Virus record (IMG/VR): IMGVR_UViG_2802429654_000001
Location: 1-43,012 of that record
Length of the DNA: 43,012 nucleotides
Source of the DNA: a virus
Strand: one strand, 5' to 3'
The position numbers and the translations under genes were made by a program. Of the stretch, positions 10,846 to 42,289 are shown piece after piece. Positions within the stretch are counted from its first letter, which is position 1; each line of letters begins with the position of its first letter. Below the pieces are notes generated by a model. The model saw nothing but the letters and a program-made list of their open reading frames with translations. It was not told the DNA's origin and did no database searches.

Positions 10846-11199
10846 ATGAACCAGCAAGAGATGGCCGTCAAGGTCACAGAGTCAACTGAGAGCGTGCTTG
10901 GCGTTTTACACGCGGGGCGAGCAACGCCCGGGCACATAGTCGAAGAAACGAATCTCGCTCGGCAGACAGTACATAGCCAGCTGAATCAGCTTCTCGCAGG
11001 GGGTCACATCCGGTACGTCCACGAAGCGACCGGCCTCTACGAGCTCATCGACGATCCTCGCGATGACGTCGACCAGGAGGATGACGTCGAGCAGCTGAAG
11101 CGGCACGTCCGCGCTGCCGGCGAGGCGATCGAAGAGCAGGACGTCGACGCCCTCCGTCGGCATGTCCGCGCGGCGTGTGAGGTGATCAACGATGGCTAA
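10846..11199 (+). CDS. Winged-helix transcriptional regulator
   Basis: GRATPGHIVEETNLARQTVHSQLNQLLAGGHI...TGLYEL. Confidence 0.8.
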   Translation: MNQQEMAVKVTESTESVLGVLHAGRATPGHIVEETNLARQTVHSQLNQLLAGGHIRYVHEATGLYELIDDPRDDVDQEDDVEQLKRHVRAAGEAIEEQDVDALRRHVRAACEVINDG

Positions 11200-30903: not shown

Positions 30904-31262
30904 CACTCGGTCACCACCGTCAGGGCAGTGACGCCGGAGTCCTCCGGGTACGTGTCGAGGAGGCGGTACGTCTGCCCGCTCGGGTGGTCGAGCAACGTCG
31001 GGTAGCCGTCTGCCGAGCCCGCTGAGATGAGGTCGACGCCGTCATCCGGGACTGTGCGGATCTCGAGGTCGGTCTCGACCTCGGTCCCGTCGGAGTCGGT
31101 GGCAGTCCGTGCGCCGGCCGACGTCCTCCGCTCGAGGACGCCGACGATCGTGTCGTCAGGAGCGTAGTCCGGCGTCGACCGGCCGCCGCCGGAACCCGTG
31201 GCGTTGCGCACGGTATACTCGACGCCCTGTGACTGGATCATCCGCGCGATCGGGCCGAGCAT
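30903..31262 (-). CDS. Head closure / head-tail joining protein
   Basis: 119 aa, positioned in the neck module. Confidence 0.65.
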   Translation of the reverse strand: MLGPIARMIQSQGVEYTVRNATGSGGGRSTPDYAPDDTIVGVLERRTSAGARTATDSDGTEVETDLEIRTVPDDGVDLISAGSADGYPTLLDHPSGQTYRLLDTYPEDSGVTALTVVTE

Positions 31263-31517
31263 CAGCTCACCTCCGCGATGCGGATCGAGTTGATCAGCTG
31301 GCCAGTGTCGCGGATGCCCTTTCGGTCGGCGATCTCCTTCATCCGGTCCTGGACGGCGAGCGCGGCACAGCGCACGATAGCAGCCTCTGAGATGAGCGGG
31401 ATGCCCTGCGAGGCTGATATCCGTCGCACCTCGTTCGCCATGTCAGCACGAACACGCTCGGCAGCCGGTCGGACGAACGGCCGGGCCTCCATCTTCGACG
31501 TCCCTTTCTCTTGGTAC
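31262..31517 (-). CDS. HK97-gp10-like neck protein, exon 2
   Basis: (V)YQEKGTSKMEARPFVRPAA...RDTGQLINSI. Joined to exon 1 it gives a 125-aa protein. Confidence 0.88.
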
Positions 31518-32585
31518 CAGTTGGTGTTATCCAGCCGGCTTTTTATCCGGCTGTTCTCCGGGTTTCCCCGAAGCTCGGCGTAACTTTTCACCCGCTGCTG
31601 GGTGCGAGACACTCGTGGGCGCTTGTCGCTTCCATATCGCTCGCGCCTACGCTCTACGGTACGGGCGGTCTGCCCGTTACCTCGGGGTTGGCTTACTACC
31701 GTTGATGTGAGAGGTGATTTTCTCCCACCGGATCGGGTCGTAGATCTCGGACCCGATGTACCAGTCCGTCGCCGGCGAGTCGTGTTTCGACTTGTTACAC
31801 GACTCGCAGGTCGGGATGATGTTCTCCACGACCGTCTCGCCTCCGTTGGCGAGTGGCTGGACATGGTCTCGGACTGGCGAATCTGTCCCGTCTCCGCAGT
31901 AGGCACAGTGGACGACAGCGTCAACGCGCCAGTGGTCTTTGATTGACTCCCAGTCACTGCCTGAGAGGCCAGTGTCTGCGCGCCGCATCTGGTTGCGGCG
32001 AAGTCCCGAACAGGGCTTACAGTACACTTCAAAGCCGCCATCCTGCTCGTAGAAGTGGCGGCCGTTGAGTGGGATGATCTGCTCACAGGATGGGCAGAAC
32101 CACTCCCCTTCAGGGATTTCTCGCCCATCGGGAGTGACCCCTGTCTTGTTTGGCCGGTGGATCTCGTATTCCGCTCGACCATCTGATGGGTGGCACTTCT
32201 TACAGGTCGTGGCGAATCCGTCACTGGTTTTCTGTTGCCTGTAGAAGTGTTCAGGGTCGGCGGGAAGCACCTGCTGGCAGCTGGTGCAGATTTTCTTTCC
32301 ATCCGGGGTGTCCATGACCTGATTCGGTTTGTGGACGCCGAACTCGGAGCCTCTACATTCCTTACATCGCGGTTTGAACGCGTCGCGATGTCGGTGGAAG
32401 TATTTGACCGTCCCTGGGAGCGAGCGGTTACAACCCGTACAGACGATATTTCCGTCTGCGCCCGGTCGTGCCATACTCTTAGTAAGTAGGGACAATACAT
32501 CATTCTTTGGGTGGTAGCGTAGCCTTCCCCCGATACTGTCTCGTTCTGTATCCGATCGGTTTCCGATCGGTGCGGCATACGATTT
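31518..32585 (-). ncRNA. Group I self-splicing intron (IA-like, with P7.1), 1068 nt
   Basis: 5' exon ends in U paired to G in P1 (GCGGU/GCCGC) and the intron ends in G. P3 CGAGACA/UGUCUCG, P4 UCGGGG/CCCCGA, P6, P7 G-A-GCGUA/UACGC-C, P8 CACCC/GGGUG, P9 with a GAAA tetraloop, P10 GUAU/GUAC. Removal restores DYAVYQEKG. Confidence 0.92.
31677..32474 (-). CDS. Intron-encoded HNH homing endonuclease
   Basis: Three CxxC...CKxC repeats, then CAYCG...DHVQP..GG...NIIPTCESCNKSK. It lies in the P5 loop and its stop falls within P6. Confidence 0.9.
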   Translation of the reverse strand: MARPGADGNIVCTGCNRSLPGTVKYFHRHRDAFKPRCKECRGSEFGVHKPNQVMDTPDGKKICTSCQQVLPADPEHFYRQQKTSDGFATTCKKCHPSDGRAEYEIHRPNKTGVTPDGREIPEGEWFCPSCEQIIPLNGRHFYEQDGGFEVYCKPCSGLRRNQMRRADTGLSGSDWESIKDHWRVDAVVHCAYCGDGTDSPVRDHVQPLANGGETVVENIIPTCESCNKSKHDSPATDWYIGSEIYDPIRWEKITSHINGSKPTPR

Positions 32586-32707
32586 ACCGCGTAGTCGACC
32601 GTCGGCCCAGCGAGGTACGTCGTCGAGCCGTCAAAGCGGACGCTAAGCGACTCGATCGTATCTGTGACTGCGTCGAATCCCCGCAGCGACACCCCCCAGC
32701 CGCTCAC
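32586..32707 (-). CDS. HK97-gp10-like neck protein, exon 1
   Basis: MSGWGVSLRGFDAV...LAGPTVDYA(V), ending in GCG GT. Confidence 0.88.
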
Positions 32708-33495: not shown

Positions 33496-34362
33496 TTAGG
33501 TCTGGATGGGGATGTTGGCCGACGGCTGCGTGGCGGCGAAGCCGACACGCTCGTCGATCTGCCACACCGTCGACTCGATGGACTCGTCGTAGTAGCTGGA
33601 GACGTCCAGCGCGCGGCGAGTAGACTCCCAACCGAAGTTCGTCGGATCGACGAGGTACGCTTCGCCCTCGGCGTAGTTCCCCGTGTTGTCGAGGAACACC
33701 GGCACGTCGCCGGCGACACCGAGGAAGGCCTGCTGCCCGGTGAGGTTCCCCTGCGGGAGGATACCCGCCTCGACGACGGAGTCGCCGAGCTGAGAGGCCT
33801 GCGTGAACTTGTCCATGTTCAGCAGGGCGTTCATGTTCTGGCCGCCAGTGAGCAGCCGCAGCTCGCTGAGTTCGAGCTCGTCCTGGAAGGCCTGCTGCCG
33901 GGCGAGCGTGATGTCTTCGTACTCGAAGACGCCGCCAGTCTCGTTCCCGGCGTCGATCGGGCCGGCCGCGTTCGTGTTGTTCGAGAGCAGCTGGTAGGCG
34001 ATCCCGTCGACACGCTTCTCCTCGGCCCGGACCAGATCCTCCTCCTGATCCATTGTGATGTCGATGACGTTGTCTTCGACGTCCTCGTCGGGGATGACGA
34101 TCTCAAGGCCGTACTTGGTGTGTGCGACCTGGACCGTGTCGTAGTCCTTCGCCGCCCGGGGGAACTCGGAGCCGGGCGGGACTTCGGCGACGTCACCGTC
34201 GAAGTCGCCGTCGGAGACAGGGAACTCCACCGAGTTGGAGTCGTTGTTCGTGGCGTCGTAGTCACGGAACGCCGTCCGCGACTGGTAGTAGCGGTTCCGG
34301 ATCTTTTCGACGATCGCGCGAACGTCGTCGTCGCTGATGATGTCAGATGCTTTCTGAGCCAT
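33496..34362 (-). CDS. Major capsid protein (HK97 fold)
   Basis: 288 aa. EVPPGSEFP...KYGLEIVIPDE E-loop/backbone pattern, plus gene position. Confidence 0.88.
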   Translation of the reverse strand: MAQKASDIISDDDVRAIVEKIRNRYYQSRTAFRDYDATNNDSNSVEFPVSDGDFDGDVAEVPPGSEFPRAAKDYDTVQVAHTKYGLEIVIPDEDVEDNVIDITMDQEEDLVRAEEKRVDGIAYQLLSNNTNAAGPIDAGNETGGVFEYEDITLARQQAFQDELELSELRLLTGGQNMNALLNMDKFTQASQLGDSVVEAGILPQGNLTGQQAFLGVAGDVPVFLDNTGNYAEGEAYLVDPTNFGWESTRRALDVSSYYDESIESTVWQIDERVGFAATQPSANIPIQT

Positions 34363-42035: not shown

Positions 42036-42216
42036 AGGCGGCCGGTCTGAATTAGGTTTGGAACTTCGTGATAGCTCGCGTGTCGCCGGTCCGAGGAGGA
42101 CGTCCAGAAGTGCTCACACACGTAGATGAATACGTGACAAACGACTCCCGCTTGTGGCCGGCCGCTCGTGGAGCGGTACGCAGCCTCCTGCCAACATCGG
42201 CAGTACAAACGGCCAG

Positions 42217-42289
42217 TGGACCAGCGCGGATTCGAACCGCGGCCTCGCGACGGCTTCAGCGTCGTGCTCTCCCACTGAGCTACTGGTCC
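42217..42289 (-). tRNA. tRNA-Phe (GAA)
   Basis: Full cloverleaf: GGACCAG/CTGGTCC, GCTC/GAGC, CGACG-CTGAAGC-CGTCG, CGCGG-TTCGAAT-CCGCG. CCA is not encoded. Confidence 0.9.

Follow-up and report, generated by a model that had tools for sequence, protein, structure and literature searches.

A probable phage-type group I intron carrying an HNH endonuclease gene in the neck gene of a haloarchaeal tailed virus

Introduction

What interrupts the neck gene of a virus that seems to infect haloarchaea? The gene, which would encode a 125-residue HK97-gp10-like protein, lies in IMG/VR virus record IMGVR_UViG_2802429654_000001, an uncultured 43-kb contig estimated to be 96% complete, the whole of which (43,012 nucleotides, nt) is called the window here. 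After codon 40 plus 2 nt the gene is split by an insert of 1068 nt (31518-32585, minus strand) that contains an open reading frame (ORF) for an HNH endonuclease. The original prediction, made from the letters of the window, read the insert as a group I self-splicing intron with a homing endonuclease inside an archaeal virus structural gene. That reading is supported by homology, by the anatomy and covariation of the insert, by a match to a covariance model built from bacterial-phage introns, by an exactly placed insertion site with intron-less alleles, by recurrence in divergent viruses and by a link to an archaeal host. We put at about 0.85 the probability that the insert is a mobile IA-type (IA2-like) group I intron, of the type found in phages of Bacillota, residing in the HK97-gp10-like neck gene of a haloarchaeal tailed virus.

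Results

The insert splits a conserved neck gene

The junctions and helices quoted in the original prediction are all present in the sequence. The features are listed below in transcript order.

32586-32707, minus strand: exon 1 of the HK97-gp10-like neck/tail-completion gene, 40 codons plus 2 nt, ending ...GAC UAC GCG GU
31518-32585, minus strand: predicted group I intron, IA-type (IA2-like), 1068 nt, recognised by covariation, covariance model and homologues
32572-32580, minus strand: internal guide sequence; GUAU (32580-32577) is the P10 partner of 3' exon GUAC, and GCCGC (32576-32572) is the P1 partner
32552-32570, minus strand: P2 hairpin, 8 base pairs (bp), AAA loop
32528-32543, minus strand: P3 5' strand CGAGACA (32543-32537), J3/4 GUA and P4 5' strand UCGGGG (32533-32528)
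31677-32474, minus strand: HNH homing endonuclease ORF, 265 amino acids (aa), in the P5 loop and in a frame other than the host gene's; three CxxC...CxxC zinc-ribbon repeats and a C-terminal HNH domain
31682-31699, minus strand: P5/P5a 3' strand, J5/4 AA and P4 3' strand CCCCGA (31687-31682), overlapping the last HNH codons; P4 covaries
31658-31681, minus strand: P6 (GGU/ACC) and P6a (CGGGC/GCCCG), from RNAalifold and covariation
31648-31654, minus strand: P7 5' strand, made of G, a bulged A and GCGUA; predicted guanosine-binding-site geometry
31618-31647, minus strand: P7.1 (GGCGC/GCGCC; 31647-31643 with 31622-31618) and the enclosed loop or hairpin, an IA-type extra element between P7 and P3'
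31605-31611, minus strand: P3 3' strand UGUCUCG
31589-31604, minus strand: P8 (CACCC/GGGUG; 31604-31600 with 31593-31589), from RNAalifold and pair counts
31577-31582, minus strand: P7 3' strand UACGCC, with an A-rich J8/7 just before it
31518-31573, minus strand: P9 (31573-31556, 7 bp, GAAA loop), P9.1 (31553-31532, 7 bp) and tail
31262-31517, minus strand: exon 2, 1 nt, 84 codons and the stop, starting G UAC CAA GAG AAA GGG ACG

The 5' splice site reads ...GCGGU|AAAUC... (32586/32585) and the 3' splice site ...AACUG|GUAC... (31518/31517). The exon bases GCGGU pair with the guide bases GCCGC to form P1, which places a U.G pair at the cleavage site. The helices follow one another in the order P3-P4-P5-P5'-P4'-P6-P7-P7.1-P3'-P8-P7'-P9, which gives the P3/P7 pseudoknot, and the last nucleotide of the intron (31518) is a G, as it is in all 30+ members of the intron family described below.

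The interrupted gene is located two genes downstream of the major capsid gene (33499-34362; Phage_capsid_4). Exon 1 begins with a GTG codon that overlaps the stop of the upstream gene, and homologous first exons were found by tblastn in the metagenomic contigs L051 and L055. Exon 2 matches PHROG family phrog_5, 'tail completion or Neck1 protein' (2e-8). In Pfam neither the separate exons nor the unspliced frame of the window gene gave a match; the intron-less homologue in the Halorussus halobius provirus L048 matches PF04883 (HK97-gp10_like) at 8e-12. When the exons are joined as predicted, the conserved YA.Y.E.GT...P..RPA motif becomes continuous in a 125-aa product, in agreement with the earlier proposal that splicing restores the YA.Y.E.GT motif of an HK97-gp10 protein.

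Intron-less alleles, which the original prediction proposed to seek in related proviruses, do exist. The gp10-like gene of the Halorussus halobius provirus is uninterrupted and reads ...DYAEHVEKGTSKM... across the site, and intron-less homologues are contiguous at the junction (...DYAE|HVEKGTSKM... in the Halorussus provirus and ...YARM|QEKGTSKM... in phages). The closest proviruses, L048 and L049, lack the intron, and their DNA similarity to the window stops just after the capsid gene. For the major capsid protein, identity is 93% to a locus within a Halorussus halobius scaffold of 1.34 Mb and 71% to a locus of Haloferax namakaokahaiae. Acidic residues strongly predominate in the structural proteins of the window (D+E 17-30% versus K+R 5-7%), the GC content of which is 0.63. 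Judged from sequence, the host is a haloarchaeon of the Halorussus/Haloferax type.

Two oddities of the host protein were also seen. It has a circularly permuted look relative to ordinary HK97-gp10-like proteins (window 31262-31320 versus L048:7056-7442): a D-T-G-x-L-x-x-S-I motif that precedes the YA.Y.E.GT strand in L048 and L037-L047 forms the very C-terminus of the window protein (...RDTGQLINSIRIAEVS). Exon 1 encodes only 40 aa, and a short exon 1 is common to the haloviral contigs L051 and L055.

Structure and covariation of the intron

A single-sequence fold of the insert recovers P1, P2, P6, P7.1, P9 and P9.1, with a z-score of -3.4 for the 3' half. Given 22 distinct 3' halves of homologues (alignment A2), RNAalifold independently returned P6/P6a, P7, P7.1, P8, P9 and P9.1 as they had been read earlier. 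Pairing was found in 97.8% of the A2 cells as against 35-42% with the partners slid, compensatory changes affected 19 of the 34 pairs (two of them in P7), and none of 500 shuffles reached the observed values. The haloviral introns were also taken alone, as a set of five full copies that includes the window. In their 3' halves 96.8% of the cells are paired and 13 of 38 pairs have compensatory changes. P3 has a different sequence in each of the five, always perfectly complementary to its own 3' strand, and P4 and P1 likewise show compensatory changes. As these changes arose within the haloviral clade, they argue that selection has acted on the fold of the RNA and, through it, on splicing. Among the helices originally proposed, P3, P4, P6, P7, P7.1, P8, P9 and P9.1 were upheld by covariation or RNAalifold; P5, drawn as enclosing the HNH ORF, is plausible.

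The 5' half shows how exon and guide change together. In L056 the P1 change is double, exon GCGAU being matched by guide GUCGC, and the exon AUAC of L057 still gives four P10 pairs. The guide layout of the window also occurs in L030 and in CBP1-type introns, and the P2 hairpin is kept with different sequences in L051, L055, L056, L057 and L030. In the catalytic core, the predicted guanosine site consists of G(31654):C, the bulged A(31653) and G(31652):C(31578). At the binding position all 22 sequences keep the G-C pair, and the flanking pairs covary; P7 pairs 59/158 and 63/155 switch jointly from G-C to A-U in 6-7 of the 22. P7.1 is present and covarying, with an inner P7.2 hairpin in only part of the family. 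The P9.1 loop, AUAAAAAG, is invariant across the family and is followed by a conserved GAUAAC...UG tail with its terminal G.

We built covariance model R1 from an alignment of 13 introns that were all from bacterial phages, Lactobacillus phage JCL1032 included (alignment A3). Searched against the window, R1 gave one match, at 31517-31699 on the minus strand, over the full model length and with 127.1 bits (E 2.6e-38).

The relatives are introns of bacterial phages

When the region was compared by blastn with deposited phages and haloviruses, two matches were obtained, both on the 160 nt after the HNH stop (31537-31696) and at 70-76% identity; a halovirus copy of the intron was not found by blastn in that collection. 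One match, in Alicyclobacillus phage MMB025, comes right behind an endonuclease ORF and separates the two parts of a DNA polymerase gene, and the other, in Caldibacillus phage CBP1, lies within a split tape-measure gene. The three-way alignment contains compensatory changes in three hairpins. A core motif taken from invariant columns retrieved 33 IMG/VR contigs, and from each contig's own 3' strands the sequence P3-AAA-UCGG(U/G)(G/A) was found in nearly all of them. This P3-J3/4-P4 segment lies upstream by 30-60 nt (in ORF-less introns of about 250-300 nt) or by 770-1040 nt (where an ORF occupies the P5 loop), the distance in the window being 854 nt. All members end in G(A/G)UAAC, a few bases and (U/C)G. 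The intron ORFs vary across the family and are of the LAGLIDADG, GIY-YIG and HNH types, a variety that is usual for group I introns.

A low-GC member of the family matches 94 deposited phages (of Staphylococcus, Bacillus, Clostridium and others). JCL1032, a phage of Lactobacillus delbrueckii, is among them, and its terminase coding sequence is annotated as a join. According to a statement in PMC6669764, which cites Riipinen and Alatossava 2004, the JCL1032 introns are proven self-splicing group I introns. The intron in the JCL1032 terminase large-subunit gene belongs to the same RNA family as that of the window: it has the bulged nucleotide in P7, P7.1 and the GAUAAC...UG 3' end, as well as the family features P3-AAA-P4 (UCGGUG), a CCGAG.UAAC junction between P4' and P6, and the P9.1 loop GGAUAAAAAGCC. 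It differs in residing in a bacterial phage and in a terminase gene, in having no ORF in P5 and in being AT-rich, whereas the window intron has 58% GC, J3/4 GUA and the HNH ORF.

Prophages of the Bacillus cereus group carry IA1 and IA2 introns in tape measure, terminase and tail tube genes (Tourasse and Kolsto 2008, PMC2504315). These introns and that of the related Staphylococcus phage ROSA resemble the window's in being phage-borne IA-type introns of late structural genes, placed at the most conserved codons and with an optional homing endonuclease gene; they differ in being all bacterial. ROSA and tape-measure introns were among the relatives recovered in our searches. The tentative IA2 label used here is taken from the description of these relatives as IA2 in PMC2504315.

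Two members of the family have unusual layouts. The Bacillaceae-type contig L027 (IMGVR_UViG_2836801230_000001) contains two family introns in different genes (cores at 1468-1510 and 11079-11121), one with an HNH ORF of 260 aa and the other with an ORF for a 176-aa protein. In L023 (2465-2720) the ORF apparently sits in the P8 loop rather than in P5: an AT-rich segment that includes a ribosome-binding site and an ATG splits the 3' core after P3'.

The same codon is occupied in other viruses

Five metagenomic contigs of GC content 0.60-0.68 (L051, L055, L056, L057 and L058) have the HNH gene in the same intron and in the same codon of the gp10-like gene; the samples behind them are ENA ERZ28435434, JGI 3300046157, SRR34348050, SRR26668037 and SRR28149508. 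The predicted spliced products of the haloviral relatives are conserved, reading ...VEYAVYVDQGTSKM..., ...VEYAIYLELGTSKM... and ...TEYSVFLEFGTSKM... Between the window and L051 identity is 68% for the HNH protein, 34% for the capsid protein and 49% for exon 2. The HNH protein is therefore more conserved than the host genes, as expected for a homing element, which argues for horizontal spread.

The identical codon position of a gp10-like gene is also occupied in L030 (IMG/VR contig 3300020212_000017, GC 0.44), a Bacillota-type phage whose capsid module has 67% nucleotide identity to Staphylococcus, Enterococcus and Listeria phages. Its ribozyme is homologous (141 bits with R1) and shares the guide layout and the 8-bp P2 with the window's, whereas its intron ORF (233-237 aa) is unrelated to the window HNH. 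The junction reads ...TAC GCG GT | G TAC GTA GAA..., which gives ...SYAV|YVEFGT... as compared with ...DYAV|YQEKGT... in the window. An unrooted maximum-likelihood tree built from 27 3' halves places the haloviral introns in a single group (support 97/95), with L030, amid introns of Bacillota phages, as the nearest branch to it (85/90, moderate). As the tree is unrooted, no direction of transfer is claimed.

The HNH endonuclease and its free-standing relatives

The 265-aa ORF matches the Pfam families HNH (8e-10) and HNH_5 (1e-7) and PHROG families of HNH and endonuclease VII proteins. Its UAA stop (31679-31677) lies inside P6, so that the ORF overlaps P5, P4 and P6. We found 42 relatives of the protein at 29-76% identity, all metagenomic. 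In the seven whose genomic context was read, the gene is invariably inside or directly beside a gp10-like gene. Identity to the HNH proteins of thermophilic Bacillaceae tape-measure introns is only 24-31%.

Free-standing relatives were found in L052/L053 and in L054, immediately downstream or upstream of an intact gp10-like gene, and R1 gave no match at these loci. The two read most closely, L052:2061-3283 and L054:2501-3678, are 47% and 41% identical to the window protein and stand directly after or before the gp10-like gene. In L052 the region upstream of ATGGCACG has the same short leader as the intron-borne copies. These arrangements suggest that the HNH gene is a cassette that exists both outside and inside the intron, and it looks able to act alone. 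L054 has a second, different HNH ORF (961-1731; 256 aa, with helix-turn-helix-like matches) directly after the capsid gene, and hence two endonuclease genes in the module. Haloarchaeal virus HJTV-4, a cultured Natrinema virus, encodes in ORF38 (L060:2995-3927) an HNH protein that is 72% identical to the window's in its first 46 residues only; the gene lies just upstream of the tape-measure gene.

HNH enzymes encoded in IA-type phage introns include I-HmuI and I-HmuII of Bacillus phages SPO1 and SP82 and I-TwoI of Staphylococcus phage Twort. Free-standing endonucleases that target intron insertion sites are exemplified by the cases of cyanophage psbA and T-even mobE. The window resembles these cases in having an HNH gene within an IA-type phage intron and in the presence of intron-borne and free-standing relatives near one target gene, whereas its enzyme differs from those endonucleases in the three zinc-ribbon repeats.

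A predicted splicing and homing pathway

The anatomy of the insert and its family homology predict the following course of splicing. After transcription the guide would pair with the last exon bases to form P1 with the U.G wobble at the cleavage site. Exogenous guanosine would dock at the G-C pair beside the bulged A in P7 and attack the 5' splice site. The terminal G (31518) would then take the place of the guanosine while P10 aligns the 3' exon, and ligation would join the exon 1 end GACTACGCGGT to GTACCAAGAG. The expected ligated junction is ...GACUACGCGGU-GUACCAAGAG..., which would restore ...DYAVYQEKGTSKM... in the 125-aa protein. Such catalysis, if the pathway holds, would proceed at the intracellular salt of a haloarchaeon. 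The HNH protein would be translated from the ORF in the P5 loop and may cut or nick the intron-less gp10-like alleles of co-infecting viruses; its probable target is the conserved sequence coding for YA(V)Y.E.GT. Repair of the cut allele would copy the intron in.

Alternative explanations

Several observations weigh against an active group I intron, beginning with the outcome of database searches. Rfam model RF00028, by which the original prediction was to be checked, had no match on the window at its gathering score and none at E<=10 on either the whole insert or the 3' half. The absence of a covariance-model hit had been named among the results that would count against the intron, yet RF00028 misses proven members of this family: at E<=10 it found neither the JCL1032 intron nor the ORF-less CBP1 intron, and its silence is therefore uninformative for introns of this family. 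The genome search that gave no match on the insert included 14 control genomes, two of which scored above the cut-off. Nor did RF00028 detect archaeal group I introns in the study of Nawrocki, Jones and Eddy (PMC6125680). Weak matches to other Rfam families (SAM-VI, hya, CRISPR-DR29, ilvB-OMG and Pseudomon-1) were set aside as being far below the cut-offs and inside the ORF or on the wrong strand. The intron core pattern (with up to two mismatches) had no genuine copy in 401 sampled Halobacteria genomes, R1 found none in 151 such genomes, and the HJTV-4 genome has no intron. The single core-pattern match, L050, was judged spurious from the matched letters; a reversed control pattern also gave one match.

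The sequence itself has features of the same tendency. P5 (GGC/GCC and CUACC/GGUAG) lacks covariation, and J3/4 is GUA where the family has AAA. The host frame is open across the whole intron, giving a 481-codon ORF (window 31262-32707, minus strand), and as a result ribosomes could enter the ribozyme; in phage T4, ribosomes running into a ribozyme disturb its folding. In L057 (1391-2438) the 5' splice site has C instead of U, which makes a C-G pair of the U.G in P1, and the intron length is not a multiple of three. That copy is possibly weakened or decaying, and not every copy need be active. The open frame, the deviant J3/4 and the C of L057 are what would be expected of a group I intron by descent that had lost splicing, a decaying selfish element that left the neck gene inactive, in two pieces or read through as a 481-aa protein. 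Yet the core helices are all intact, pairs in the haloviral set, P1, P3 and P4 among them, have been kept by compensatory change, and the guide of L056 has followed its exon. The gene encodes a conserved virion component in a nearly complete record. Translation of the read-through intron gave no Pfam match, and the introns of relatives have 0, 1, 1 and 13 stops in the host frame. We rejected a functional 481-codon read-through: the frame is shifted so that its codons begin on the third, GC-rich positions of HNH codons, and relatives carry stops. Because the relatives have from 0 to 13 stops there, the open frame is probably a by-product of the frame offset and of GC-rich third positions. The intron length is a multiple of three, as are four of five lengths among the relatives, which is expected since the insertions and deletions fall in the ORF. 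We consider loss of splicing unlikely.

It is possible, if doubtful, that the intron is removed in vivo only with help, from an RNA chaperone of host or virus, from the HNH protein acting as a maturase or from molar KCl, and is not autonomous in vitro. Dependence on protein cofactors or on high ionic strength is common among group I introns, this one would work in a cytoplasm with molar K+, and the overlap of the ORF with P5, P4 and P6 would couple translation and folding. On the other side stand a complete core with the stabilising elements P2, P7.1, P9 with its GAAA loop and P9.1, and close structural relatives, the JCL1032 family, that are stated in PMC6669764 to be self-splicing. That the contig comes from a phage of a halophilic bacterium and carries an ordinary phage intron is very improbable: the record is uncultured and the intron family otherwise bacterial, but the capsid protein is 93% identical to the Halorussus halobius locus and 71% identical to that of Haloferax namakaokahaiae, and the acidic structural proteins and high GC content agree with a haloarchaeal virus. 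Removal by another route has the least to recommend it and is hardly credible. Archaeal introns are usually of the bulge-helix-bulge type, which the tRNA splicing endonuclease cuts, and an in-frame length with an open frame would suit an intein. By eye, however, no register provides a 4-bp helix between the first intron bases and the first exon 2 bases with 3-nt bulges. Translated in the host frame, the insert gives an out-of-frame version of the HNH gene in which R, S and T abound and which has no intein or other Pfam match; the HNH ORF lies in another frame. A phage-type group I intron remains the reading that we prefer.

Discussion

Bacteriophages commonly contain group I introns. From Archaea none was known before 2018, and the reports since then are limited to IB4- and IA3-type hits, in rRNA genes (Nawrocki, Jones and Eddy 2018, PMC6125680). 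That study also met three IA2 hits in archaeal sequence, which it put aside as possible phage or contaminant DNA (PMC6125680). The window intron resembles the archaeal rRNA introns in being a group I ribozyme in the archaeal domain that RF00028 misses, and differs from them in being IA2-like, in occupying a viral protein-coding gene and in its kinship to phage introns. Full-text literature searches turned up no paper that describes a group I intron from an archaeal virus, which agrees with the guess at novelty made in the original prediction. The insert appears to be a true group I intron, a further member of a phage family already known, in a type of host that is new for it.

With confidence only a little better than even, we propose a common history for these elements. 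One phage intron lineage would have crossed between bacterial and archaeal viruses by homing into shared, ultra-conserved gp10-like codons and would now circulate among divergent haloarchaeal tailed viruses, its ribozyme working in molar KCl and its HNH gene caught in both the free-standing and the captured state. In that case no group I intron would have been reported before from any archaeal virus, or from a protein-coding gene of the archaeal mobilome.

Such a finding would place a canonical phage-type ribozyme and a homing endonuclease in a structural gene of an archaeal virus. That a Bacillota phage and haloarchaeal viruses have homologous ribozymes in one and the same codon suggests that selfish elements travel between the tailed viruses of both domains by way of shared conserved genes. 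The ribozyme, presumably folding at multi-molar K+, would be a natural high-salt ribozyme of use in RNA-folding studies, and the HNH relatives, some free-standing and some intron-borne, offer a natural series in which to follow the invasion of introns by endonucleases. As RF00028 misses the whole family, split structural genes of archaeal viruses are liable to be annotated as separate small ORFs.

Elsewhere in the window, near the end of the record, a tRNA-Phe (GAA) gene was found (42216-42289, minus strand, 62.6 bits); it may be virus-borne or the remnant of an integration site.

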